DNA from: a virus
Taxonomy: Duplodnaviria; Caudoviricetes
Reading direction: 5' to 3' (one strand)
Length of the DNA: 24,480 nucleotides
IMG/VR virus record: IMGVR_UViG_3300026187_000088
Coordinates: 1-24,480 of that record
Under the pieces are notes generated by a model. It worked only from the letters and a program-made list of their open reading frames with translations, did not search any database and had not been told where the DNA came from. Positions 6,153 through 23,500 of the stretch are shown in pieces (positions within the stretch are counted from its first letter, which is position 1; the number at the start of each line of letters is the position of its first letter). A program made the translations under genes and the position numbers.

Positions 6153-7399
6153 TGTCAGATAAATTTTTTCGTATTAAAATTCAACGTCTTCTAGATCGTC
6201 TCCCAAACCCAGTTCAATTTAATGAGTCTCAATGGGCAATGGTTGAAAATCTAGACTCTCACCGATTTGTTGTGCATATTGCTGCACGTCGTACTGGTAA
6301 GTCTTATGCAGCTGCTATTCTAGCATTTGCTAAACTTTTAGAGCCTGGTCAACAAGTTATGGTTGTTGCTCCTAACTTTTCTCTTTCTTCAATTATTTGG
6401 GATTATGTTACAGACTTAATTAGACAACTTGATATTGAAGTTGAGCGTTTCAACCAAAAAGATAAGGTGGTGAAATTAATAAATGGCTCAGTTTTTAGGT
6501 TGCTTTCAGCTAATAACCGAGATTCACTAGTAGGTCGTGCAGCAAACCTCTTAATTGTAGACGAAGCTGCAATTATTCCTAATGATGAGTATTATACGCG
6601 AGATTTACGTCCTGCACTGTCAACTTTTACAGATTCTCGTTGTTTATGGATTTCTACACCTCGTGGCAAAGGCAACTATCTATATGAGTATTTTTTACGT
6701 GGAGAAGATCCAGAATATCCAGATTGGTCCTCTTCAATACATACTTGGAGAGCTAATCCACTTCTTTCAGAAAAAGACGTAGACGAAGCTCGACGTTCTA
6801 TTACCAAAGCTCTTTATCTTCAAGAGTACGAGTGTGAGTGGACTACGACTGAATCTCAAATTTATCTTGATTTAGATGAAGAAAAACATGTAGGTGATTA
6901 TATTGGAGAACGATTTGCTGAAGTTATAGGAGGACTTGATGTAGGCTATCGTGATGAAAATGTATTTGTCGTGATTGGTACAGATGGAGATAACTATTTT
7001 ATTATTGATGAGTTCGTCTCAAAAGAATCTACAACATCTGAACTAGCAGCTGAAATACAAGAAAAAATTAATGAATGGGGAATAGATACTATTTATATAG
7101 ACTCTGCAGCACAACAGGTAAAAGCTGATTTTGCTTATGATTATGACATCTACTGTGAGAACGCTATTAAATCAGTAAATGATGGGATAAATTCTATTCA
7201 AGTATTGATAGAACAAGATAGACTTTTCTTTGATACAGAGGGAGCTCGCCATACTTTTTCTGCAATGAGTTCTTATAAGTGGAATCCTAATACAGAAAAC
7301 CCAAAACCAATTCATGATTGGGCATCGCATCCTTGTGACGCAGTAAGATATGCTATTTATACACATCAGAAAATGAGTAATATATCAATTTATGCTTAG
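6152..7399 (+). CDS. terL: Terminase large subunit (T5-like)
   Basis: Q motif (NESQ), Walker A ARRTGKS, Walker B LLIVDEAA, ISTP.G motif III, RNase H-like nuclease GLDVG...HPCDAVRY. Confidence 0.96.
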   Translation: MSDKFFRIKIQRLLDRLPNPVQFNESQWAMVENLDSHRFVVHIAARRTGKSYAAAILAFAKLLEPGQQVMVVAPNFSLSSIIWDYVTDLIRQLDIEVERFNQKDKVVKLINGSVFRLLSANNRDSLVGRAANLLIVDEAAIIPNDEYYTRDLRPALSTFTDSRCLWISTPRGKGNYLYEYFLRGEDPEYPDWSSSIHTWRANPLLSEKDVDEARRSITKALYLQEYECEWTTTESQIYLDLDEEKHVGDYIGERFAEVIGGLDVGYRDENVFVVIGTDGDNYFIIDEFVSKESTTSELAAEIQEKINEWGIDTIYIDSAAQQVKADFAYDYDIYCENAIKSVNDGINSIQVLIEQDRLFFDTEGARHTFSAMSSYKWNPNTENPKPIHDWASHPCDAVRYAIYTHQKMSNISIYA

Positions 7400-8021
7400 A
7401 ATAATTGTTTTAAACTACAAAAGACCTGATAATGTTCGTGCTATTTGTGATGCATTTCATCGAACTGTTCCAATAACTGTTATAAATAATAATCCTTATG
7501 AAACCTTTGAGTATCGTTCTCGTAAGGTAACGGTAATAAATAATGACAGTAATAAATATTGCATAGAACGTTGGTTACAGTGTTATAACTATACAGAGCC
7601 TTTTAAATTAATATTAGATGATGATTTAGTTCCTTCTCCTTTATTAATACAAAAGTTAAAGCGAAGAAATCAACCGCTAATAGGTATTTATGGAAAATCA
7701 GGTGTAGATAAGGCTAAAAAATATAATGATTTACGAGATCATTGGTGTAATAATTCACGTGTTGATTTTCTTGTGGGTTCTGTTTTAATGGTAAAACAAG
7801 AAGCTCTTGATGCCATAAAAGAAGATCTACTGACTTTTAAAGGGTTAAAGAGGGGTGATGATATAGTTGTAAGTTATTTAGTCAAAAAATATTATAAACT
7901 TGAAAATCTAGATACTGTAGTTGGTAAGGTATTAAATTTGCCAGAAGGAAATGTAGGTCTTAATCGTCATCCTGACCACTTTAAACTGCGCTGGGAGGTG
8001 CTTCAACAGTGTCTGAATTAA
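7392..8021 (+). CDS. GT-A fold glycosyltransferase (GT2/GT64-like)
   Basis: N-terminal IIVLNYKR nucleotide-sugar-binding strand, VINNN, ILDDDL (DxD) motif and GDDIVVS catalytic-region motif. Confidence 0.75.
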   Translation: MLRIIVLNYKRPDNVRAICDAFHRTVPITVINNNPYETFEYRSRKVTVINNDSNKYCIERWLQCYNYTEPFKLILDDDLVPSPLLIQKLKRRNQPLIGIYGKSGVDKAKKYNDLRDHWCNNSRVDFLVGSVLMVKQEALDAIKEDLLTFKGLKRGDDIVVSYLVKKYYKLENLDTVVGKVLNLPEGNVGLNRHPDHFKLRWEVLQQCLN

Positions 8022-8386
8022 AAAGATTTCCAATAAAATATATAAGAGATTATATTAAAAAAGATTATAAATTACGAGATGAGTGTTATATTTGCGGTTC
8101 AACAGAAAAATTAGAACTTCATCATCTGTTTTCAGTCAGTCAACTATTTGAAAACTGGTGCGCAGAAAATAAGGTGAGTGAAATTGATACTGTTGAAAAA
8201 ATTACTTCCCTTCGTGAGAATTTTGCTATAGACTGTAAGGAAAGTTTAGACCATCATAATCTTTATACTTTGTGTAAATCTCACCACGTGAGGTTACACA
8301 CTATATATGGTCAAAGATATTCAAATCATTTAGTACCAAAAATTAAAAACTGGTTAGAAATTCAGAGAGAAAAAAATGGCAGATGA
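8009..8386 (+). CDS. HNH endonuclease, T5-type nicking/packaging nuclease
   Basis: LKR.PIKYIRD, CYICG..EKLELHH and LYTLCKSHH..LH..YG motifs; position between terL and portal as in T5. Confidence 0.85.
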   Translation: MSELKRFPIKYIRDYIKKDYKLRDECYICGSTEKLELHHLFSVSQLFENWCAENKVSEIDTVEKITSLRENFAIDCKESLDHHNLYTLCKSHHVRLHTIYGQRYSNHLVPKIKNWLEIQREKNGR

Positions 8387-9632
8387 AGATAGAAAGACTT
8401 GGAGAGAATGGGCAGCTGAAAAGCTTAATCCAGCACAACCCTCAATCTCATCTTTAGAACCTTTTGCACTTCCCGAAACAATTGTAGATTTTGAACAAGC
8501 TTATCGTGAGATTGAGGTTGTCCATCGTGCAGTTGAAATGAATATTAATGCCATGAATGAGATTCCGCTCATAGTTGATGGTGGTGCTTCAAAAAAAGTA
8601 AATAAGATACTTAATGTAAAACCGAACCCCTTTGAAGACCGAGCTAGATTTTTTAGGCGTGCTTTTTTAGACTTTCATTTAGATGGTAACGCTTTCTTTT
8701 ACTACGATGGAGCAGATCTCTACCTTCTCCCAGCAAATGATGTGGAAGTAGTCCCAGATTCAAAAACTTTTGTTTCTCATTATAACTATATAGTATCAAA
8801 CCAACAACAAAGTGATTATTATGGCTTTGGAAGAGGTGCTCAAACACGTAAGGCTGAATCAATTCAGTTTGCTCCACAAGAAATAATTCATGTTATGAAT
8901 GAGAATGAAAATTCAATTTTTAGAGGCACATCAAAGCTTAAACCTATTCTAAATTTAATGGAGCTTTACTTCTACATGATTAAGTTCCAACGTCAATTCT
9001 TTAAAAATAATGCTCTTCCAGGTTTTGTTCTTACTACAGACAATATTTTATCAAAACGAGTCAAAGAACGTCTATTAGAATCTTGGAGATCTAACTATAC
9101 AACTCTTTTTGATGGTGCTCGTAATCCTGCAATTTTAGACGGCGGTTTAAAGATTGATGAATTCTCAACAAAGTCTTTCGACCAGCTTGATTTTGAAAAT
9201 TCAATTGAACGTATTCAACAAGATATGTCTAAAGCTCTTGGCGTGCCTTATGTTTTATTAAAATCAGGTAATAATGCAAACATTGATGCTAATCAAAAGT
9301 TGTACTATCAACATACTATTCTACCTATGTTAACTCAGTTTTGTTCCGCGTTTCAACATTTCTTTAATGGGGGAGTTACTGTTCGTCCAGACAAGCTTTC
9401 AGTTCCTGCACTTCAACCAGATAATAGAACACAGGCTGTATATTACTCTACTCTGGTTAATACAGGAATTATTACCCCAAATGAAGCTCGTGAAGGATTA
9501 AGATTTCCAAAACTTGAAAATAATGATAACATAAGAGTACCACAAAACATCACAGGTAGCGCTACAGATGCTACTCAAGGTGGAAGACCCTCATCCGAGG
9601 AATCTATTAATGAGGAAGTACCCAATGAATAA
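8376..9632 (+). CDS. Portal protein (HK97/T5 pb7-like)
   Basis: EKLNPAQP, LNVKPNPF, LDGNAF, EIIHV, FFKNNALPG, ALGVP, GIITPNEAR, P.NITGSA...GGRP motifs. Confidence 0.95.
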   Translation: MADEDRKTWREWAAEKLNPAQPSISSLEPFALPETIVDFEQAYREIEVVHRAVEMNINAMNEIPLIVDGGASKKVNKILNVKPNPFEDRARFFRRAFLDFHLDGNAFFYYDGADLYLLPANDVEVVPDSKTFVSHYNYIVSNQQQSDYYGFGRGAQTRKAESIQFAPQEIIHVMNENENSIFRGTSKLKPILNLMELYFYMIKFQRQFFKNNALPGFVLTTDNILSKRVKERLLESWRSNYTTLFDGARNPAILDGGLKIDEFSTKSFDQLDFENSIERIQQDMSKALGVPYVLLKSGNNANIDANQKLYYQHTILPMLTQFCSAFQHFFNGGVTVRPDKLSVPALQPDNRTQAVYYSTLVNTGIITPNEAREGLRFPKLENNDNIRVPQNITGSATDATQGGRPSSEESINEEVPNE

Positions 9633-12354
9633 AACATTTTATCTTAACAGTGCTTTCGAAAATAAAGGCATTTCTAAAAAAACTCGTGGTCTTAAAATCG
9701 CGGGTTATGCTAATACTATCGTTAAAGATCGTGCTGGTGATGTTGTAACAGCAGAAGCATGGGCTAAAGGAGTAAATAACTTTCTCCGAAATCCTGTTAT
9801 GCTTTATCAGCACAAGCATGATTGTCCAATTGGACGCTTTGACCAAGTAAAGGTTGATAAGAAAGGCATTTATGTAGAAGGAACTGTGAGTGATGCTGCT
9901 GAAAAGAATCACGGCGTTCAGACACTCATTAGAGATGGAGCTCTTAAGAGCTTTTCCGTTGGATTCAGAGTAAAAGATGGTAAATATAATCGTGAAGATG
10001 ATTCTATGTTGATTACAGATGTTGAGCTGTTAGAAATTTCAGTTGTCTCTGTACCTTGCAATCAAGATTCATTATTTTCGATTCGTAAATCTTTTGACAA
10101 TGAAGATGAGTACAACGAATTTAAAAAATCTTTAAAAACAGCTTCTGAAGAAGAAGTAAAAATGATGCGTAAAATAAAAGCAGGAATCACCGATATGAGC
10201 GACGGTCATTACCACACAGTCGAAATGGACGAAAAAGGTAATGGTGTAACGACCTACGCATCGCACATGAAAAACCATGCTCATAAAATTGTTGGTGGTG
10301 TTGTGTTGGAGGCCGAAGGTCATACACATGATATTACCATGTCTGGTGTTCCAGTCCACAATATGGAGGAGGGCGAGGTTATTAACGAACGTCCAATGTC
10401 TCCAACCGAGGAGGAAGCAATGAGTAACTCAAAATCTGAGGAAGTTGTTGAAACTAAAGCTGAAGAAGCTGAAGTAGAAACAACAGAACTTGAAGTTACT
10501 GCTGAAACCGAAATAGAAACAACAGAAGAAAAAACTGTTGAAGATATAGAGGAAAAAGCAGAGACTGACGAGATTGAAGTCAAAGCTAACGCCGAGGAAG
10601 CTATTGAAGACGAGATGGAGAAGGATGATTCAGAAGAAGACGAGTTTGTAGCTCGTGATCCTAATGAGTCTATCCCGTTTGTTAATTTGCTTTCCGCAGA
10701 CGCAAACTCACTTCAAAATGGAGACCTTGTAAATTATAATGAAAAAATGTACAAGGTCGCAAAGATCGCTACCGCCCAATCGCCAATCTTTAAATTTTTA
10801 GAGGTTGACGCAGAAGGCAATGATTGTGATAATGTTCTTAATGTGAATGCAGATGATCTTTCACAATCAAATCAAATTCAAAAAAGTGAAGACACGGTTT
10901 CTAACGAAAGTCTGACTAATGAGCTTCACGATCATTCTACAAAGGAGAACGACAACATGGCTGACCAAGTCGTAGATACAATCGACCTCGATACTGTTGC
11001 TAAAGAAGCCAATATCGAAGTTAACAAAGAAGCTACTCCAGTAGCTGAAGTGTCTGAGCCTCAAGTTGCAGAACTGGTTAAAAAGACCGGTGAAGCTATT
11101 ATGAAAGAGTCAGACGCTCAAGATATGCAGAATCTTAAAGAAGAAAAAACTGCATATACCCCAAAAGAATCTGAAGAAGTTGCTGAACTTAAAGCTCAGA
11201 TGAGCAAGTATCAGGAAGAAATTAACGCTCTTCAGCGTTCAAAAATGCATTATCAAGAACAGTCCCGTAAGGAACAGTTCTCTGAAAAAGAAATGGCTAA
11301 TGCTGTAATGCTTGCTAAAATGCTTAACAAACGTGACGTATTCGATACCAAAATTGGTAATCGTATGAAAGCTGTCACATCTGTTGATCAGTTCCTTAGC
11401 AACTTCTCAAGCAACATTTACACTGAAATGGAACAGCAGCTCGTTGTAGCTCCTCTGTTCAACCGTGTATCTGTTGACGCGAAAACATTCCGCGTACCAG
11501 TCGCTGATGAAGACACCGATGGTGATGTAGCACAATTTGCTTCTGGCACATTTGCTACAGGCATTGCCGATGCAACTCGCGTACCAACCTCAAACCAGAA
11601 CACCATTAGCTCTGTGGACTTTACTCCACACAAGTTTATGGCAACCACCCACCTCGCAAAAGACGAAGAAGAAGATACCGTTCTTCCTCTGCTCGACTTC
11701 TTGCGTGCAGCTGCAACTCGTCGTTTAGCACGTGCTATCGATAAGTCAATCCTTCGTGGTACTGGTGCTTTGACTGGCTTTACAGCACAACCTACCAACG
11801 CTATTACAGCTGGTACTGGTTATGCTTCTGTCATCGAAGGTATCACTAACCTGACAGGTGATGTCGGTGCTGGCTTGACCGTTGACACTGGTTCTGCTAA
11901 CGATAAAGCTGATCCTTCAGACATCGCTGCAGCTCGTACAAAGCTTGGTAAATATGGTCTTCAGCTTGGTAATGACCTTGTGTACCTTACCACTATTGAA
12001 GGTTATAACAACCTTGTAACAACTTCTGACTTCCAGACAGTTGACAAGTTTGGTCCAAACGCTACCTACCTCACAGGTTCAGTTGGTGCCGTTTACGGTA
12101 TTCCAATTGCAATCACTGAATTCTTGGATGTTGTCGGTTCTACCAACAACGACCTTGGTGTCCTGCTTTATAAGCCTGGCTTTATGATTGCAGAACGTCG
12201 TGGTATCGAGATTGAGAGTGAGTACGAACCACGTCAGCAGGTTACTGCTATGTACATGAGCACTCGTATTGACTTTAAAGCTCTTACAACCAATGCAAGT
12301 TCAGCTCTGGATGCTACTAAGTACCCATATGCTGTTACTGTTGAAGCTGGTTAA
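9625..12354 (+). CDS. Fused prohead protease (HK97/S78-type) - acidic linker - major capsid protein (909 aa)
   Basis: IAGYAN...DRAGDVV, NPVMLYQH, SFSVGFRV, ELLEISVVSVPCNQDSLFS (protease); HK97-fold capsid C-terminal half (GSVGAVYGIPI). Start moved from 9568 to ATG 9625, which has SD GAGG and overlaps the portal stop. Confidence 0.93.
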   Translation: MNKTFYLNSAFENKGISKKTRGLKIAGYANTIVKDRAGDVVTAEAWAKGVNNFLRNPVMLYQHKHDCPIGRFDQVKVDKKGIYVEGTVSDAAEKNHGVQTLIRDGALKSFSVGFRVKDGKYNREDDSMLITDVELLEISVVSVPCNQDSLFSIRKSFDNEDEYNEFKKSLKTASEEEVKMMRKIKAGITDMSDGHYHTVEMDEKGNGVTTYASHMKNHAHKIVGGVVLEAEGHTHDITMSGVPVHNMEEGEVINERPMSPTEEEAMSNSKSEEVVETKAEEAEVETTELEVTAETEIETTEEKTVEDIEEKAETDEIEVKANAEEAIEDEMEKDDSEEDEFVARDPNESIPFVNLLSADANSLQNGDLVNYNEKMYKVAKIATAQSPIFKFLEVDAEGNDCDNVLNVNADDLSQSNQIQKSEDTVSNESLTNELHDHSTKENDNMADQVVDTIDLDTVAKEANIEVNKEATPVAEVSEPQVAELVKKTGEAIMKESDAQDMQNLKEEKTAYTPKESEEVAELKAQMSKYQEEINALQRSKMHYQEQSRKEQFSEKEMANAVMLAKMLNKRDVFDTKIGNRMKAVTSVDQFLSNFSSNIYTEMEQQLVVAPLFNRVSVDAKTFRVPVADEDTDGDVAQFASGTFATGIADATRVPTSNQNTISSVDFTPHKFMATTHLAKDEEEDTVLPLLDFLRAAATRRLARAIDKSILRGTGALTGFTAQPTNAITAGTGYASVIEGITNLTGDVGAGLTVDTGSANDKADPSDIAAARTKLGKYGLQLGNDLVYLTTIEGYNNLVTTSDFQTVDKFGPNATYLTGSVGAVYGIPIAITEFLDVVGSTNNDLGVLLYKPGFMIAERRGIEIESEYEPRQQVTAMYMSTRIDFKALTTNASSALDATKYPYAVTVEAG
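10805..10833 (+). promoter_or_regulatory. Putative intragenic promoter upstream of the capsid moiety
   Basis: TTGACG-N14-TG-T-GATAAT with a 17-nt spacer, about 125 nt upstream of the internal start at 10957. Confidence 0.6.
10957..12354 (+). CDS. Major capsid protein from an in-frame internal start (465 aa, N-terminal coiled-coil delta/scaffold domain)
   Basis: AAAGGAG-N9-ATG in frame (MADQVVDTIDL...); size close to T5 pb8 precursor; coiled coil EVAELKAQMSKYQEEINALQ. Confidence 0.75.
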   Translation: MADQVVDTIDLDTVAKEANIEVNKEATPVAEVSEPQVAELVKKTGEAIMKESDAQDMQNLKEEKTAYTPKESEEVAELKAQMSKYQEEINALQRSKMHYQEQSRKEQFSEKEMANAVMLAKMLNKRDVFDTKIGNRMKAVTSVDQFLSNFSSNIYTEMEQQLVVAPLFNRVSVDAKTFRVPVADEDTDGDVAQFASGTFATGIADATRVPTSNQNTISSVDFTPHKFMATTHLAKDEEEDTVLPLLDFLRAAATRRLARAIDKSILRGTGALTGFTAQPTNAITAGTGYASVIEGITNLTGDVGAGLTVDTGSANDKADPSDIAAARTKLGKYGLQLGNDLVYLTTIEGYNNLVTTSDFQTVDKFGPNATYLTGSVGAVYGIPIAITEFLDVVGSTNNDLGVLLYKPGFMIAERRGIEIESEYEPRQQVTAMYMSTRIDFKALTTNASSALDATKYPYAVTVEAG

Positions 12355-12382: not shown

Positions 12383-12410
12383 AGGGGGAGGCGGTCATCG
12401 CCTCCCTTTT
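12383..12410 (+). terminator. Rho-independent terminator after the capsid gene
   Basis: GGGAGGCG (12386-12393) / CGCCTCCC (12399-12406) stem followed by TTTT. Confidence 0.85.
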
Positions 12411-15859: not shown

Positions 15860-17131
15860 ATGGCATCTCTTAATTTACAAAGAAATTCAGAGGTCTTTAT
15901 GTCCACTGTTGATTTGCTCAACGGTGCTGCAGTAACTGCTATGACCCCAGAAAACACTTGGAAACTTGAAGTGTTAGCAGGTTTTGCAGCTACATCTACC
16001 TCTGCTACACAGGACATTACAAGCCTTGAATCAGGTACAAATCCTGATCGCTCACAGCAGCGTTTTAATACTGCTATTAACCCAGTAGATTGGAATCTTC
16101 AGGTTTATCTTCGCCCAACCGGTGTAGTAACTGGTGCTACTGCTGGAGGTACAGATGCAGGTACAACTCAGACAGGTAACGTAAAACCAGTAGCTGACTG
16201 GTTTATGTGGCAGTCATTAGTATCTAATACTCAAGTAGCTGATGGTACAGATGAGCAATCAGTTTGGGAATCAGGCGGAAAACTTCAAACAACGAATGTT
16301 GCAGCCGGTACAGGCTCACACTCAACTCGTTCAAACTTCTCAACCGCTGTTGAAAACCATATGTACTTTAAGATGGATAACGTTGTCTATCAGGTATCTA
16401 ATGCTACTATTAATCAGGCAAGTGTTGATGCAGGTATTGAAGAGATCGCAACAGTAACATGGACTGGTTTTGGTACAACATTGAAAGAACTGACTAGCAC
16501 TCAACGTGATAATGCAATTTCAGTATTTGGCGGTGTGTTAAATGATGGTTCTTCTGTAACTGCTAACTCAAATGCTAGCGAAGCTACAGTAACTGCACAC
16601 TATCACCCATTTAATCAGATGAATGTTGCTGGTTCTGTTGGAACTAACTCATTCATTAAGAATCGTTTGAGCGCAATTGAATTCCATCATCAGCCTTCAG
16701 CTGGTGGAGCAGATGTGAAATATACGTTCCCAGTTACAGCTGTTAGCTTTGATTACAATAACAATATTACATATTTAACACCAGAAGAACTTGCTAATCT
16801 GAATGAACCAATTGGTCAGTTCACTGGTACACGTGCTGTAACAGGTTCAGCTACTATGTATCTTCGTGCTGGAGATACTGAATCAGCTCAGTTCCTGAGA
16901 AACATTCAGAATGATTCTCGTACAGCTTCTGCACAAACATCTAATGCTAACATCATCATTGGTGGGACAACTGCTCCTTATGTAGCGTTCCAGCTTGATG
17001 CTGTTCAGTTTGAGTTCCCATCACTGGCTGTTGAAGACGTAATTTCAATGTCAGTCAACTTTGTGGCTCAAGAAACTACTGCCAATAAAGGCACAGGTGG
17101 TGAAGTAACAATCTTTGCTGCTAAATCTTAA
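15860..17131 (+). CDS. Major tail tube protein (T5 pb6-like)
   Basis: LQRNSEVF.ST, TWKLEVLAGF, R.QQRFNTAINPVDW...YLRP, FIKNRLS, NNITYLTPEEL..LNEPIGQFTGTRAVTGS...YL; strong SD. Confidence 0.9.
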   Translation: MASLNLQRNSEVFMSTVDLLNGAAVTAMTPENTWKLEVLAGFAATSTSATQDITSLESGTNPDRSQQRFNTAINPVDWNLQVYLRPTGVVTGATAGGTDAGTTQTGNVKPVADWFMWQSLVSNTQVADGTDEQSVWESGGKLQTTNVAAGTGSHSTRSNFSTAVENHMYFKMDNVVYQVSNATINQASVDAGIEEIATVTWTGFGTTLKELTSTQRDNAISVFGGVLNDGSSVTANSNASEATVTAHYHPFNQMNVAGSVGTNSFIKNRLSAIEFHHQPSAGGADVKYTFPVTAVSFDYNNNITYLTPEELANLNEPIGQFTGTRAVTGSATMYLRAGDTESAQFLRNIQNDSRTASAQTSNANIIIGGTTAPYVAFQLDAVQFEFPSLAVEDVISMSVNFVAQETTANKGTGGEVTIFAAKS

Positions 17132-17133
17132 TT

Positions 17134-17258
17134 AAGTGTTTCTGAGGGGGAACACTAACACTTTTTAACCAGAAGAGTGCCCATCACTTGCAAATCAAGG
17201 TTCCCCCTCACCTTTGAGAAGCAGATATGTGATGGGCACTCGTATTTTACGAGGGGAA
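17134..17258 (+). ncRNA. Structured cis-acting RNA element (crossing-helix pseudoknot or switch), family unknown
   Basis: TGAGGGGGAAC 17143-53 / GTTCCCCCTCA 17200-10 (11 bp) crosses GAGTGCCCATCAC 17175-87 / GTGATGGGCACTC 17229-41 (13 bp). Confidence 0.7.
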
Positions 17259-17261
17259 ATC

Positions 17262-17693
17262 ATGAGTAAAATCAAAAATCTAATTGCGAAAGAAACTACA
17301 AGCTGGATTCCTTTTCCAGATGTTGAGGGTTTTGAGGTACATCTTTGTTTTTTAACTAGAGAAGACCTGTTAAAGATTCGCAACCAATCACTAACATTCA
17401 AGTTCAATAAACGTACTCGTCAACGAGAAGAAGAAATCGATAATGATCGTTTCTTAGAAGCCTATGCAGGAAAAGCTATCATGGGCTGGCGAGGACTAAA
17501 GATTAAACACTTACCTATGCTACTTCCAGTTGATATTTCAGGTGCTGACGGAAATGAAGAAGTTGAATACTCAGAAGAAGAAGCAATTGACTTGCTCAAG
17601 TCTTCTACGGTATTTGACCAATTTATCACAGATGCAATGAATGACTTTGAGCAGTTTTCAAAAAAGAAAGCTGACGAAGCAGCAAAAAACTAA
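17262..17693 (+). CDS. Tail assembly chaperone (gpG-equivalent), 143 aa
   Basis: SD GAGGGG before ATG 17262; GFEV.L.FL.RE.L.KIR....KFNKRTRQ.EEE.D...F...Y....I.GWRGLK motif; lies between tube and TMP; ends in a slippery site. Confidence 0.85.
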   Translation: MSKIKNLIAKETTSWIPFPDVEGFEVHLCFLTREDLLKIRNQSLTFKFNKRTRQREEEIDNDRFLEAYAGKAIMGWRGLKIKHLPMLLPVDISGADGNEEVEYSEEEAIDLLKSSTVFDQFITDAMNDFEQFSKKKADEAAKN

Positions 17694-17730
17694 CTGAATA
17701 CCTCCAGAACTCTTTACACGCTGGAGGTAT
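17684..17730 (+). promoter_or_regulatory. Programmed -1 ribosomal frameshift signal
   Basis: A_AAA_AAC heptamer 17684-90, 7-nt spacer, perfect 10-bp stem ATACCTCCAG 17698-707 / CTGGAGGTAT 17721-30; the -1 frame is open into the 17729 ORF. Confidence 0.88.
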
Positions 17731-18061
17731 GAACGCTGAACAGTATATTGATATGTGTGAGCAGATGGGTTGGGAAGTTGATGAAAATCAAATACCAAAA
17801 GACCCATCTGATTTACCATTAGAAGCTCAACAAGCTTTAATCCTTTTAAATTCTCTGCCCGACAATTGGGAAGGTATGAATGGAACTTGGTTAGGTAAAG
17901 ATTATAGTGGTCTTGGAACTATAATGGATATTTATGAAATTAGTAACCGTAAAACAGTTTTTGAACTATTAAAGGTTGCGGAATCAGAAATGTCCAAGTA
18001 TTATAGTGATAAAGCTAAACAACGTGAGTCTTTAGCAAAGACTCAGAGAGGAAGAACTTAA
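17729..18061 (+). CDS. Tail assembly chaperone C-terminal part (gpT-equivalent; made as a ~266-aa frameshift fusion from 17262)
   Basis: Y..MCEQMGWE....QIP.D..DLP.E.QQA......LPD.WEGM.G.W.GKDYS motif; the -1 frame reads LTEYLQNSLHAGG into MNAEQ. Confidence 0.85.
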   Translation: MNAEQYIDMCEQMGWEVDENQIPKDPSDLPLEAQQALILLNSLPDNWEGMNGTWLGKDYSGLGTIMDIYEISNRKTVFELLKVAESEMSKYYSDKAKQRESLAKTQRGRT

Positions 18062-21000
18062 TTGGCCAGCCAAACAATCACCACTAGATTTAAAACTGAA
18101 GGCGCACAAAAAGTTGTAAAAGATACTGATCGAATTGGTAAAGCCCAAACTCGATTAGGTCAAGCTTCTGCATCTTCTGGTCGTCAGTTCTCCGCTCAAG
18201 CTGCTGGTTTAGGTGGTGTAGTAGGTGTCTATGCAGCCGCTGCTGCAAACATCTTTGCTCTCACCGCCGCTTTCACAGCTCTTAACCGTGCAGCTCAATT
18301 TGAAACAATCATTCGTGGTACACAACAGTTATCTGCAGCAGTTGGCACATCTGCTAACTCTGTTATTAAACGTCTTCAAGATATTACGGGCGGTCAGCTT
18401 TCTATTGTTCAAGCTGCTGAAGCTGCCAACCTTGCATTATCTGCAGGTTTTAATACCGATCAAATTGAACAACTCGGTCAAGTAGCTTTTAAAGCTTCAA
18501 GAACATTAGGTAGAAGCTTACCTGACGCTATTGAACGTGTTTTTAGAGGTACAATCAAATTAGAACCAGAACTTTTAGACGAACTTGGTATTTTTACTCG
18601 TCTTGACCCTGCAGTAGAAAAGTATGCTGCGTCTCTCAACAAATCTACAACAACTCTTACTGCGTTTGAACGTCGTCAAGCATTTGCTAACGGCGTTATA
18701 GGCGATGGTACTGCTGCTTTTTCTGATGTTATTATCTCTACTGAAGATGCTACTGCCTCTTTTCAACGACTAGCTGCGCAGTTTGCTGACCTTGCGATTA
18801 AATTTGGTAATATTATTGCAAACATTCTAGCACCTTTTGCAGACTTTTTAGGACAAAATTTAGGTAATAAACTTTTACTTTTAGGAGCTATTGGTGCTTT
18901 AGTGTTTAATCAGCTAGGGGCCAGTATTGGAGGATTTGTTACAACAGGTTTAACAAAACTTTCTCAAGGATTAGTGAATGCAACAGAGCGTTTAACTACT
19001 TTTGGTAGAACAGCAAAAGCTCTTGCTCCAGAGTTTCAAGCAGCAGGTCAAGCTTTTGTAGGCGGTGGAGCTCTTCCAGGAGCTGGTCGAGCTGCGGGTG
19101 CGGAAATTAAAAGAGTTTTTGCAGAAGGCACAGTTTCTACACAACAGGCACAGGTCTTTGCAAGAGATTTAAAGGATTTAAAACAAAATGAATTAAACTT
19201 ACAAAAAACATTAAATGAAGAAAAGAAAATCGCTGGTAAATTAACAGAATCACAACAGAAACAATATGATCAATCTGTACAAAGACTAGGTGCAATAGAA
19301 CAGTCACAAAAAGTAGTCAATCAAAGGCTCAAAGCAGCAGGACCATTTGCGAGTGCATTAGCTTCTGGATTAAATCTTGCGGCTACTGCCATGAGAAATT
19401 TAGCCGCAGCTGCAAATGCAGTTTTAGCTGTTCTTGGTCCCATATTTGCTATTATTGGTATAATTCAGCTAGTAGGTTCTGTATTTGGTGTTGATGTGCT
19501 TGGCGGCATAACAGACTTTTTTAAAAACTTAACTAAAGATTCGCGAGATGCTGAAAAAGGGTTAAAAGACTTTGGAGCCGCAGCTGCTTCTGTTAGTGCT
19601 GGACCTTTAGCTGACTTAAGAGAAGAGCTTGGGTTAACTCGCTCTGAATTTGCAGGAGTAGTCGAAGAAGCTATAAAATTAAGAGAACAAGGTGGCTATG
19701 ACTTTGGGGCATTTGGTCCTGATCTATTGGACTTACAGACCTCTCTCAAAGTTTTAGAGGCTGATTTAGAAAGACTTACAGCCCAAAAAGAAGCTGGAAC
19801 AGGAACTTTTTTTGGATTACTTGATAAAGACAAACAAATTGAAGATACAAAAAAAGAGATCCAAGCACTTGAAGTTGCTATAAGTGATTTACAGCTTCCT
19901 ACAGGAGAAGCTGGTCTTGCAATTACTCGTCTAGCAGAGGCTGGTGAGATAGAAATTGAACAGCTTCAAAAAGCTTTTGCAAGAGGTATTCTTAATATTA
20001 ATAAAGATACTAATGATTTACAATTGACTTTTGAAACTTTTTCTCAAACAGTTCTTGAGTCTGGAGAAAGTATAGATTCTCTTACAGAGGAAGCTAAAGC
20101 ACTCTCTGCAACTTATGCTACTGCAGCACTAAAAGTTCAAGAATTTTATGAAAATTTTGAAGGCGGTAGATTAAGTGCTGATAGAGCTGCAAAAGACTTT
20201 GGAGTAATTAATAATGTAGTTAATGACTTGAGAGCACAGATAGATGATTTACCTGATGGACCTTTTAAAGCAGAGTTTTTAGAGTTTATTAACAATTCAT
20301 TAGATGGAACAGTTAGTCGTGCTGAAGAATTAAATGATAGATTTCAGACTCTTGATAAGTTTGCACAACAACTTCGTAAAACATTTTCAGGAGAGCTTGG
20401 TTTAGCAGATTCTGCTATTTTTACTGGTGATGTAGGTCTTTTTGGTGATATAGCCAAAAATGATTCAGAGCGTTTATTAAATCTTTCTGAAGTTGTAAAT
20501 TCTGTATTTACAGAAGCAGCAAAGATTCGTTCTGATTTTGAACAAGCATCAATACGAGGAGGTGGAGTCTTTGATAGAGAAAAGCTTGAGGCTGATGAGA
20601 AAAAGATATTTGAAATTAGAGACATTTTGATCAAAGGCTACTTAGGCTCTATCATTAAAATTACTCAAGAACAAGAAAAATTAAATCAGTCACTAGAAAA
20701 GCAGAAAAAAATATCTCAATCTACTATTGAAGTTCAACGTGCTAATCTACAGGTTACAAAAGCAAACACAGCTCTTACAACAGCACAACAAAAAAACAGA
20801 ATTAATGCAGCAGAGCGAGAGCGTGACTTTATTCTTCAAAACCGTGATATCACAGAGCAAGGAATCTCACTCAGACAAATAGAAAACAGTGCTTTAGAAG
20901 CAACTCTTAACACTCAAAAAGAACTTCTCTCATTAAAAGGGCAAGAGTTAAAGTTAAGTCAAGATTTAGCAAAAACTCAAATCGAGATAGGATTTGCAGC

Positions 21001-23500
21001 AGCTGAAGGTAGAGACGCTCAAGCACTGGCTAGAGCTCAAGGAGCTCTTCAAACTGCAGAAATGAGAGGCATTTCTACTCGACGTGAATTAGTTCAGCTT
21101 CGACTTAATGTAGCTGAAGTAGAATTTAGAAATGCTAACAATGCTTTTGATCGTCAAGAAGCTCTTGCACAAGTTGAGGCACAAAATGCTCGTGAAAATA
21201 TTGCTCAAAGATCGATGATGATTGAACAAGAACGAGTAATTGCTGAAGCAAGAATTATAAATGAACTTGAAATCTTAAGAGCCCAAGAACAGGCAAGAGT
21301 AAAACAAGCGAAGATCGAACAACAAGCTCTAAATGATGAGGAGGGATTGATAGAGTTAAGAAGGAATGCTGCATCCGCTTCTCAAACAGCTGCTAAAAAG
21401 TCAGCAGAAGCTGCAAAACTACAACGAGATCTTGCCTTGAAACAGCAGATTGCTGAATTAGAGTTAGTAAAACAACAAGCTGCAGTGTTTAGTGGGTTTA
21501 TCTCTAACTTTGGTTCTTTGATAGAAGGTCTTGCTGAAATTGCTAGTGTTTTAGGCGGAGATGTTGGGTTTGACTTTGAAGCATCTGATATTTCAGCTGA
21601 CGTAGATGCAAATATTGCCGCCTTACAGCAGTTATTAACTGATAGTTCTACAGTTTACAGTATTCAAGTGCTATCAGCCAAAGAAGCAAGAAAAGCAACA
21701 GAGGCACAAATTCAAGCTGATAAAATATTAATCGATATTAACAAGCAAAAAACCGAAGAAGTTGAATCTTCTCTTGTAAGAATCTTTGAAGCTCGTCAAG
21801 ATTCACTTTTAGATGAACTTGACGCAACTAATTTAACTTCTCAAGCAAAACAAAAGCTTTTATCCCAAGAATTAGCTCAAACAGAAGCTAATTTAGTACT
21901 ACAACTTGAAAAAGTTGGTATTGAACGCACAGCTGCTGAAGAGATTGTTCGCATTGCTCGCGACCGCGCAGCCTATGAAATATCTGAACAAAGACGTATT
22001 GATGCTGCCTACGCAGCTTCTAAAGGCATTGTAATGAACTATGTCGAAAACGGCTTGATGGAATTGAATACAGCTCTAATTGAGGGCGATCTTACATTCA
22101 AAAACATAGCTAAAGGTTTCAGAGATATGCTTGGCTCAATGCTTCGTGAAATTCAATCAGCTGTATTCCGCCAAACTATTGCTGCTCCGATAGCAGAATT
22201 TGTTGGCGGATTGTTTGCAGCTGGTGGTCGAGTACATCTTGCTGGTGGAGGATCTATGAAGCGCGACCGTGTCGCGGCTATGCTCGAACCTGGTGAATAT
22301 GTAATTCGTAAAGAAGCTGCAAAAAAGCTTGGCATGAGCAAACTGCAAGAATTAAATGCTGGAGTTTCAGACGATCCTATAGCTCGTATTATAGCTTATG
22401 CTTATGGCTCAAAAGTAAAGAGTAAAGCAGCTGGCGGAGGCCTGGGGTTTGGCAATCCTGCTGACATAGGTTATGGAGGAACAGGCATTGGACCAACAGG
22501 AGTAGGACCAAGCACAAGTCCTGGTGGGTCATTTTCTTCAGGAGCAGGAGAGTCAATCACCTCCTTTGCTCCAAGCTCTAGCATAGGTCCAACTTCTGTA
22601 ACTCAAGGATTCTTTGCTAATGCTACAGATACAGGTTTTGGTTCACTAGTTTCAACCACACCTTTTGGTCCTCCAACTGTAACCGATAGCATAATCGGTA
22701 AATTGGGTGGTAGCACCTACATGAATACTCCTCAAATCACTGAAGGCAAAATGAATCAGTTAAATGCAGATGCTCAACAGGCTCAACAAATGGCAGAAGA
22801 AGCTGCATCACTTATTTCAGAAGGATATACTGATAGTCAAATATCTGCTTTCCAAACTATGCAAAATATAGCTAGTGAGATTGGCGCACCTGGAGACTTT
22901 GGTCCTGAAGAAGCTCCAAGTCTTTTGAGTGAGGTTCAAAATAATCAAAAGAGTGGGCAAGGTTTACAACAAGCGTATAACAACGCGTTTAAAGGTGCTC
23001 CTCAACAGTTTATAGAATCATTAGCTCCAACAACTCCTTTACAAGGACTAAGCTTAATAGCTGGTACAGGATTGATCGGTGAAACTGCTCAAGCCATTTC
23101 ACAGATATCAGGTGCTCTTGGCTTTGCATCAGATGTAGCAGAAGGTGAAAATGCTATTGGGCAAGCTCTTGGACTAGGTAAAGCATCAGGAGGCAAAATT
23201 ATGCGCATGGCTGGTGGCGGTTCTGTTAATTCACGCGATAGAGTACCAGCTTTGTTAGAGCCTGGTGAGTTTGTAATTCGTCGTCCAGCTGCAAAAGCTA
23301 TTGGAGGTGCTGCATTAAATCAAATGAATGCTACAGGAAAGGCTCCAAGCATTTCTGTTAACATGACAAATCAAGGAGCTCCTAAAGATGTTGCTGTTGG
23401 GGCTCCAAAAATTAATGGCGATAAGATCATTCTAGATATTATCACTCGTGATTTACGAAACAATGGCTCAATTAAAAAGACACTGAGAAAGGGTAAATAA
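18062..23500 (+). CDS. Tape measure protein (T5 pb2-like N-terminus), 1812 aa
   Basis: TTG start right after the chaperone stop; FSAQAAGLGGVVGVYA..AANIFALTAAF.AL and KLEPELLDELGI motifs; hydrophobic helices; long coiled coil; C-terminal GG...D.V.A.LEPGE.VI motifs. Confidence 0.93.
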   Translation: MASQTITTRFKTEGAQKVVKDTDRIGKAQTRLGQASASSGRQFSAQAAGLGGVVGVYAAAAANIFALTAAFTALNRAAQFETIIRGTQQLSAAVGTSANSVIKRLQDITGGQLSIVQAAEAANLALSAGFNTDQIEQLGQVAFKASRTLGRSLPDAIERVFRGTIKLEPELLDELGIFTRLDPAVEKYAASLNKSTTTLTAFERRQAFANGVIGDGTAAFSDVIISTEDATASFQRLAAQFADLAIKFGNIIANILAPFADFLGQNLGNKLLLLGAIGALVFNQLGASIGGFVTTGLTKLSQGLVNATERLTTFGRTAKALAPEFQAAGQAFVGGGALPGAGRAAGAEIKRVFAEGTVSTQQAQVFARDLKDLKQNELNLQKTLNEEKKIAGKLTESQQKQYDQSVQRLGAIEQSQKVVNQRLKAAGPFASALASGLNLAATAMRNLAAAANAVLAVLGPIFAIIGIIQLVGSVFGVDVLGGITDFFKNLTKDSRDAEKGLKDFGAAAASVSAGPLADLREELGLTRSEFAGVVEEAIKLREQGGYDFGAFGPDLLDLQTSLKVLEADLERLTAQKEAGTGTFFGLLDKDKQIEDTKKEIQALEVAISDLQLPTGEAGLAITRLAEAGEIEIEQLQKAFARGILNINKDTNDLQLTFETFSQTVLESGESIDSLTEEAKALSATYATAALKVQEFYENFEGGRLSADRAAKDFGVINNVVNDLRAQIDDLPDGPFKAEFLEFINNSLDGTVSRAEELNDRFQTLDKFAQQLRKTFSGELGLADSAIFTGDVGLFGDIAKNDSERLLNLSEVVNSVFTEAAKIRSDFEQASIRGGGVFDREKLEADEKKIFEIRDILIKGYLGSIIKITQEQEKLNQSLEKQKKISQSTIEVQRANLQVTKANTALTTAQQKNRINAAERERDFILQNRDITEQGISLRQIENSALEATLNTQKELLSLKGQELKLSQDLAKTQIEIGFAAAEGRDAQALARAQGALQTAEMRGISTRRELVQLRLNVAEVEFRNANNAFDRQEALAQVEAQNARENIAQRSMMIEQERVIAEARIINELEILRAQEQARVKQAKIEQQALNDEEGLIELRRNAASASQTAAKKSAEAAKLQRDLALKQQIAELELVKQQAAVFSGFISNFGSLIEGLAEIASVLGGDVGFDFEASDISADVDANIAALQQLLTDSSTVYSIQVLSAKEARKATEAQIQADKILIDINKQKTEEVESSLVRIFEARQDSLLDELDATNLTSQAKQKLLSQELAQTEANLVLQLEKVGIERTAAEEIVRIARDRAAYEISEQRRIDAAYAASKGIVMNYVENGLMELNTALIEGDLTFKNIAKGFRDMLGSMLREIQSAVFRQTIAAPIAEFVGGLFAAGGRVHLAGGGSMKRDRVAAMLEPGEYVIRKEAAKKLGMSKLQELNAGVSDDPIARIIAYAYGSKVKSKAAGGGLGFGNPADIGYGGTGIGPTGVGPSTSPGGSFSSGAGESITSFAPSSSIGPTSVTQGFFANATDTGFGSLVSTTPFGPPTVTDSIIGKLGGSTYMNTPQITEGKMNQLNADAQQAQQMAEEAASLISEGYTDSQISAFQTMQNIASEIGAPGDFGPEEAPSLLSEVQNNQKSGQGLQQAYNNAFKGAPQQFIESLAPTTPLQGLSLIAGTGLIGETAQAISQISGALGFASDVAEGENAIGQALGLGKASGGKIMRMAGGGSVNSRDRVPALLEPGEFVIRRPAAKAIGGAALNQMNATGKAPSISVNMTNQGAPKDVAVGAPKINGDKIILDIITRDLRNNGSIKKTLRKGK

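Follow-up and report, generated by a model that had tools for sequence, protein, structure and literature searches.

What occupies the unusually long gap between the tail tube and tail assembly chaperone genes of an uncultured T5-like phage, and does it act as RNA? The stretch of DNA analysed here, referred to as the window, is 24,480 nt long and comes from a record that is itself a fragment, carrying a head and tail module in the order terminase, portal, protease-capsid, head-tail adaptor, tail terminator, tail tube, chaperone and a long ORF. According to the ORF list, the 130 nt between tube and chaperone form the longest gap from the capsid gene to the end of the window, and over that range the initial annotation was right to call it the longest of the tail operon. 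Two perfect stems, A with A′ (11 bp) and B with B′ (13 bp), are interleaved here in the order A-B-A′-B′, at the positions first annotated (Table 1). Judged by comparison among relatives, the element is a real, widely conserved, pseudoknotted cis RNA between tail genes of uncultured aquatic T5-like phages, and it fills the tube–chaperone gap in at least 153 distinct gaps of one T5-like clade.

Table 1. Features of the tube–chaperone junction, in positions of the window
Feature	Position	Strand	Basis or remark
Tail tube (major tail protein), T5 pb6-like	15860..17131	+	ORF; phrog_3575, E 5e-46; stop TAA 17129-31
H1: 17135-38/17153-56 and 17140-42/17150-52, one bulged U; loop UGAGGGG 17143-49	17135..17156	+	MFE
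A, strand mimicking the SD; its core GAGGG(G), invariant, lies in the H1 loop and its 3′ flank in the H1 stem	17143..17153	+	Core in 64/64
B, 5′ strand of H2 outer stem	17175..17187	+	Covariation
H2 inside	17188..17228	+	MFE; conserved inner helices
H2 stem, often with U-G pair at base; 3′ bulge 17225-28	17188-91/17221-24	+	MFE
H2 A-rich internal loop	17192-95/17217-20	+	MFE
H2 apical stem; loop 17201-10	17196-17200/17211-16	+	MFE
A′, anti-SD-like, invariant (C)CCCUC in H2 apical loop; partner of A, possible partner of SD	17200..17210	+	
B′, 3′ strand of H2 outer stem	17229..17241	+	Covariation
U-rich tail 3′ of H2; GUAUUUUA in the window, poor as a terminator tail, whereas many relatives have a good one	17242..17249	+	
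Chaperone SD GAGGGG, identical to core of A, atypical for these phages	17251..17256	+	
Tail assembly chaperone G, 143 aa from ATG 17262	17262..17693	+	phrog_313, E 1e-12; same ATG in relatives
Slippery A AAA AAC (17684-90) and open −1 frame, G-T extension	17684..18061	+	phrog_3914 tail assembly chaperone
Long ORF, 1812 aa, tape-measure position	18062..23500	+	ORF; role from position and length

The nearest cultured relatives are Demerecviridae, at ~29 % identity for the tube (29 % to the tubes of Demerecviridae Vibrio phages) and 35–37 % for the chaperone. By analogy with the known G/GT pattern, a −1 frameshift at the slippery site would yield GT; a perfect 10 bp stem at 17698–17730, 7 nt 3′ of that site, may stimulate it. 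The long ORF that follows is probably on the same transcript as the chaperone. Elsewhere in the window, the prohead protease and major capsid protein are one fused ORF (9568–12354, ~900 aa) with an acidic linker, and a G-C-rich hairpin with a short U-run 3′ of the capsid gene (12384–12410) is probably an ordinary partial terminator. The terminase–portal interval holds a gene at 7392–8021 which, judged by eye, we take to have a glycosyltransferase-type fold, and one at 8009–8386 with what is presumably an HNH-like motif.

The two stems are exceptional for their surroundings. None of 3000 dinucleotide shuffles of the 130 nt gap contained two perfect stems of at least 10 bp; a single perfect stem of at least 11 bp arose in 6 and one of at least 13 bp in 2. 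When local stems are sought in spans of 130 nt, A:A′ and B:B′ are the longest perfect ones in the entire 24.5 kb. The gap folds with a z-score of −4.2 on the + strand, which folds better than the minus strand, and among relatives G-U pairs outnumber A-C pairs in B:B′ by 35 to 7. This excess identifies the structured molecule as + strand RNA, and a function as DNA or on the minus strand was rejected on the same grounds. Likewise rejected was a longer chaperone that would begin at a TTG upstream and run through the element; relatives keep the ATG at 17262, and gap length varies freely (120–159 nt). Inside the tube gene, a near copy of B (15/17) at 17012–17028 could pair with B′ at 12 of 13 positions, probably by chance.

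Relatives were gathered by chaperone-based scans of viral and metagenome contigs plus one DNA pattern scan. Among the matches listed, the chaperone was matched in at least 414 sequences; 16 of these were excluded as truncated or lacking a readable gap, and the remaining 398 gave 155 distinct gaps. Removal of phage Stubb, which has an extra gene upstream and lacks the element, and of one incomplete gap left 153, window included, a sample of the clade drawn among the matches listed. Clustering at 90 % yielded 64 representatives, 59 found by protein alone and 5 motif-selected via the pattern scan, with chaperones 51–100 % identical to that of the window. The pattern scan takes no account of context, and of its 80 loci among the matches listed the chaperone was present at 60, one more represented the same locus in truncated form, and the other 19 were chance-like or repeats.

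The element is present once in each of two complete genomes (173 and 117 kb); no second copy stronger than E 0.005 was found in either, and the match at E 0.005 is the capsid-gene hairpin (G001). The cultured T5-like phages Stubb and Ceto gave no model match and have another gene between tube and chaperone. A blastn search with the element as query in 50,697 phage records returned a single match, attributable to chance, and the P0134 scan found no locus from intermediate clades with chaperones 40–50 % identical. Three loci of this phage family (L442, L443 and L444), the first two element-bearing, are placed in SAR86 and Melainabacteria genome bins; binning error is the probable cause, and the placement is a weak host lead at most.

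The initial annotation's proposal of a cis-acting structure is borne out by these relatives, in which B:B′ covaries along its length and A:A′ covaries in its flanks, on the + strand. In a sequence-only alignment RNAalifold predicts B:B′ alone, with double changes in 12 of 12 pairs. A structure-fitted alignment, which leans towards the fitted model, has double changes in 28 of 28 pairs and 86.6 % of cells paired, against 37–46 % in slid controls; within it B:B′ shows double changes in 13 of 13 pairs and 95.7 % of cells paired. The next inner stem (helix 5) is 89 % paired with double changes in 4 of 4 pairs, and apical helices 6–7 are 70–77 % paired. Since the inner stems pair along with B:B′, the latter forms the basal stem of a single long hairpin, H2, of 62–75 nt and median −29.9 kcal/mol in the 64 representatives. 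At least four of the five nucleotides of CCCUC, the core of A′, are unpaired in the H2 MFE structure of all 64.

The partner of this loop lies close to the tube stop codon. CCCTC occurs in 153 of 153 gaps, and GAGGG near the stop in 151, the other two having GGGGG there. A hairpin enclosing this core is found in 62 of the 64 representatives, starting +1 to +14 nt past the stop (median +6) and within 10 nt of it in 55 of the 62. This is H1, in the window the AGTGTT/AACACT hairpin that had been noticed shortly 3′ of the tube stop and that is kept among relatives. In 48 of 64 it is better than shuffled flanks (p ≤ 0.05), in 16 it does not rise above them, and it is absent from 2. On the structure-fitted alignment, H1 has double changes in 6 of 6 pairs and 73–80 % of cells paired.

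A:A′ comprises at least 6 Watson–Crick pairs in 64/64 representatives and at least 7 in 61. The core never varies, so that covariation is impossible there; the flanks do covary. Among the 64 representatives, offset −1 is UA in 51 and CG in 2, offset +5 is GC in 63 and AU in 1, and offset +6 is GC in 36, AU in 10 and GU in 10, part of this last signal reflecting G and C runs that shortened together. Offset +7 is AU in 20, UA in 14, CG in 7 and GC in 2, giving Watson–Crick pairs in 43/64 against a shuffle maximum of 33; offsets +8 and +10 show no excess over shuffles. State changes were counted on a rapidly built protein tree with 62 rows, where changes of Watson–Crick type occur at least 7 times at +7 (42 Watson–Crick rows) and at least 5 times at +6 (44 such rows). 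The duplex extends at least two pairs into the H1 stem in 38 of 62 cases, and H1 therefore has to open; it fits the loop without any opening of H1 in 11 of 62, and one pair alone must open in 13 more.

The core of A also matches the chaperone SD in most lineages, as expected of the SD mimic within a local hairpin that the initial annotation had described. This SD is GAGGGG in 47 of 64 representatives and contains AGGAG in just 6; among readable tube SDs, AGGAG is present in 56 of 56. On the + strand of the window GAGGGG occurs three times, two of them inside the element. An atypical SD that mirrors A suggests that the SD has been selected for its match to A′. The median pairing energy with A′ is −13.3 kcal/mol for the chaperone SD and −3.5 kcal/mol for the tube SD, the former being stronger in 55 of 56. 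In the window, the reported complementarity between A′ and the SD is present, though as 6 contiguous Watson–Crick pairs in either of two registers, or 8 with a bulged C, and not 9.

SD:A′ reaches at least 6 bp in 52 representatives and falls below 6 bp in 12. No flank covariation was detected at offsets +6 and +7 (p 0.99 and 0.12; GAGG in 61/64 rows), and the state of SD:A′ changes at least five times on the 62-row tree. One locus (L433) has a plain AAGGA SD with just 3 bp of SD:A′ and the other parts of the element intact. This absence of covariation and the loss in some lineages argue, on the comparative evidence, that A:A′ is the primary contact, with SD:A′ common but dispensable. In six loci (L064, L067, L070, L157, L176 and L178), AGGAG overlaps or precedes GAGGG(G) 20 nt upstream of the chaperone start, like stacked ribosome sites.

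Three smaller hairpins of the initial annotation are present in the window sequence but are not conserved. CTTG/CAAG, a mini-hairpin placed between B and A′, is replaced in relatives by the covarying inner stems of H2. AAGTGTT/AACACTT followed by a T-run, and CTCGTA/TACGAG over the SD, are not kept either. Across the 64 representatives, CTTG/CAAG and CTCGTA/TACGAG are paired in 59–71 % of cells, against up to 60 % in slid controls.

A sister clade, with chaperones 36–44 % identical and the same gene order, has a tube–chaperone gap of 105–170 nt. Among the matches listed, both motifs occur together in 0 of its 56 distinct gaps, and 30 of the 80 listed loci, tested with the model, gave no match (best E 0.15). 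A sigma-70-type promoter scoring 10–12 of 12 is present in all 56 distinct gaps among the matches listed. In the element clade, gap promoter scores of 11–12 of 12 occur in 0/64 and a score of 10 in 2/64; in the window, a promoter was sought in or near the gap and no promoter-like site was found on either strand. A promoter in 56/56 sister gaps and no strong one in the element clade suggest that the junction may be a control point in both clades, through transcription restart in the sister clade and RNA structure here. Some sister gaps among loci L451–L530 (e.g. L451 at about 2365–2490, L495, L499 and L510) have a tetraloop terminator before the promoter. Others have, just past the start site, a conserved hairpin and U-run that could act as a separate attenuator.

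How might such a structure work? The favoured reading, given about an even chance of being correct, is a cis mRNA switch that would couple chaperone to tube translation, the ribosome stopping on the tube gene opening H1. Its hub would be A′, in the apical loop of H2, with A and the chaperone SD as two alternative partners. In the OFF state H1 would be closed, A would expose just 6–8 loop bases and the chaperone SD would hold A′; where a good U-tract follows, H2 could also end transcription. In the ON state a ribosome at the tube stop codon would melt the 5′ arm of H1, letting A extend its pairing with A′ to 9–13 bp, releasing the SD and hindering H2-dependent termination. A terminating ribosome covers roughly 9–12 nt beyond the stop, and such coverage would suffice to melt the 5′ arm of H1 while mostly sparing A. 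The coupled output would be chaperone G/GT and probably the tape measure, across the 130 nt gap. A:A′ might also close B, the 5′ strand of the H2 outer stem, into a ring, hindering B:B′ without any overlap of stems. Comparison supports H1, H2, A:A′ with covarying flanks, an SD mirroring A in most lineages and H1 within reach of the ribosome; the formation of SD:A′, the ribosome as trigger, the direction of the output and any termination we infer.

Energetic calculations lend this switch mixed support. In a crude energy ledger for the finished mRNA, which applies no pseudoknot penalties, the SD captures A′ with H1 intact in 49 of 64 representatives and A captures it with H1 removed in 53; both outcomes hold in 38, window included, and the ledger fails in 26. 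In nascent folding before B′ appears, A:A′ forms with P > 0.5 in 44 of 64 without a ribosome (window 0.997) and in 60 of 64 with one. Formation without a ribosome in 44/64 suggests that H1 may present A and not hide it. Late in B′ synthesis, the probability of A:A′ in the window is 0.70 with the ribosome and 0.001 without; in the whole set, A:A′ forms in 24/64 with and 17/64 without. A 12 nt ribosome footprint would cover the core of A in 13/64. The tip of H2 would need a sharp bend to reach an SD 9 nt from the H2 base, which counts against the switch.

The chief competing account treats the element as static: H1 would present its loop, the kiss would be constitutive and the likeness of the SD secondary, with H2 and its U-tail acting as a pseudoknotted terminator or 3′-end stabilizer, that is, as a fixed transcription step-down or protection of the 3′ end of the tube message. 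This is rather unlikely, though several features fit it. A G-C-rich stem of 12–15 bp is followed by at least 6 U in 8 nt in 37 of 64 representatives, and the window itself has the stable G-C-rich stem of an intrinsic terminator in the 13 bp of B:B′. A:A′ is kept in 64/64, whereas several lineages with strong H1 have a decayed SD:A′, the length of H2 is as narrow as a fixed geometry would require, and 24 of 56 sister-clade gaps have a plain tetraloop hairpin with a U-run. However, tails are poor in the window and its close kin (GUAUUUUA, GCAUUUUA and ACCUUAUG), and UUU comes first in just 26/64. Termination at H2 is plausible in some lineages and doubtful in the window. U-tract quality shows no link with SD:A′ strength (rho −0.03). 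A static terminator also leaves unexplained the atypical SD in 47/64 and the flank covariation within the H1 stem. The element is spanned by contigs assembled from RNA libraries of relatives (X1 record 3, X4 record 27), which counts weakly against termination because such contigs show neither strand nor level.

Other readings account for less. In an autogenous switch that senses protein, a tail protein, for instance free chaperone or tube, would shift the balance between A, A′ and SD by binding H2 at its bulge or internal loop, or by binding the GAGGGG loop. Feedback on assembly proteins would be biologically sensible, and the layout of bulge, U-G pair and A-rich loop is conserved, with G17221 in 62/64 and C17191 in 55/64; yet the invariant bases in the 64 representatives are confined to the two pairing cores and the internal-loop sequence differs from clade to clade, leaving this reading improbable. 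Less probable again is a constitutive bridge, in which A:A′ and H2 would bring the tube stop near the chaperone start for the ribosome to re-initiate, with no OFF state. The gap has no promoter, and the distances are narrow (8–26 nt from tube stop to A core, 50–68 nt from A to A′); re-initiation is described for a plasmid pseudoknot (PMC4705826). A bridge would, however, leave the likeness of the SD to A, and the U-tails, unexplained.

The initial annotation had also remarked on a loose resemblance to HDV-type ribozymes. In HDV-like ribozymes a P3 hairpin lies between the 5′ strand of P2 and the 3′ strand of P1, with an additional P1.1 pairing, and in the window the strand order does fit P1-P2-P3-P1′-P2′ if A:A′ is P1, B:B′ is P2 and CTTG/CAAG is P3. 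The likeness does not survive comparison: the P3-like pairs are only 59–68 % paired in the plain alignment, with one pair unpaired in 33/64, and give way to the covarying inner stems of H2; no C between A′ and B′ is invariant (best 41/64). Rfam returned no match to any ribozyme at gathering score or E ≤ 10. HDV-like ribozymes are double pseudoknots with an essential cytosine in J4/2, and minimal forms without P4 are found in phages (PMC10879173). Self-cleavage is very hard to credit here. The element resembles HDV-like and theta ribozymes in its phage setting and in the interleaved long helices of the window sequence, and differs from them in having no conserved P3 and no invariant catalytic C and in not being tRNA-linked.

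To return to the switch, its nearest counterparts are found among known RNA controls. Intrinsic terminators have a G-C-rich stem and a U-tail, and ribosome-controlled attenuators have alternative 1:2 and 2:3 pairings by a stop codon. The element shares with these a G-C-rich stem and U-tail behind an abundantly made gene and alternative 1:2 and 2:3 pairings adjoining a stop codon. What sets it apart is a 62–75 nt hairpin with internal loops, a U-tail that is good in only about half of relatives, and a putative antiterminator pairing made through the loop, clear of the terminator stem. In the rep system of plasmid ColIb-P9 (IncI-alpha, repY/repZ), a pseudoknot that forms once a ribosome has reached an upstream stop makes the following SD available (PMC4705826); the loop there lies upstream, the freed strand adjoins the SD and an antisense RNA, Inc, competes for the loop. 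The working proposed here is similar: a ribosome at an upstream stop would open a local hairpin, a short G/C-rich strand would pair with the loop of a long stem-loop (as A:A′ can in 64/64, with covarying flanks) and the SD would become usable. In contrast to ColIb-P9, the freed strand is upstream, the loop is the anti-SD and the flanking genes encode virion tail proteins. Neither an antisense RNA nor a promoter to drive one could be found on either strand, in the gap or close to it. No sequence relation to ColIb-P9 rep was detected (no Rfam match); the element may work in a similar way but is not a member.

The thiM platform likewise works through three short strands, one of them the shared partner of the other two, and its SD is freed by anti-anti-SD pairing (PMC2018614). 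The present element is not a member of that group; it has no aptamer-like conserved core, sits between two genes, and its pairings are loop–loop or pseudoknot contacts with the long hairpin intact. A new class of switch could be suggested, if only tentatively and with some doubt, in which a single loop would pair by turns with an SD decoy upstream and with the SD itself, would be read by the ribosome finishing the tube, and would block a terminator by the loop contact without overlapping its stem.

Catalogues agree with the first impression that no named family applies: Rfam 15 gives 0 matches at gathering score in the window, and in 9 relatives a single unrelated match (E 0.42) outside the element. 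Sub-threshold likenesses in the window are to potC and mir-743. The best, potC RNA (RF01751; 19.1 bits, E 0.26), arises via a GUGCCCA/UGGGCAC stem, lies well below the gathering score of 44, has no match in the 9 relatives at E ≤ 1 and is a chance likeness of one stem. No such motif appears in the accessible portions of Weinberg 2010 (PMC2864571), Weinberg 2017 (PMC5737381) or the Minerva preprint (10.64898/2026.09.22.753630). Fremin et al. 2023 (PMC10690425) list 8,495 anonymous candidate RNAs from IMG/VR, compared here through rows of two tables; H2 could be one of those left without a label. Four of those candidates, among the matches listed, lie upstream of other chaperone families, with hosts or lengths unrelated according to the table descriptions available. 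A literature search covering few subscription journals returned no published account of structured RNA lying a gene ahead of the G/GT frameshift. The element has no Rfam family and is a new form within a known kind of control; the switch proposed for it is probable.

Long-tailed phages need tube, chaperone and tape-measure proteins in set ratios, and the G/GT frameshift is a known RNA-level control of tail proteins. The element is small, is kept across a wide clade (chaperones 51–100 % identical) and has clear compensatory pairs, and the sister-clade promoter at the same junction would represent a second solution to one problem. If the switch reading is true, chaperone and tape-measure synthesis would be metered against tube synthesis by RNA alone, upstream of the G/GT frameshift, and the element would constitute a compact part for coupling the translation of two genes.
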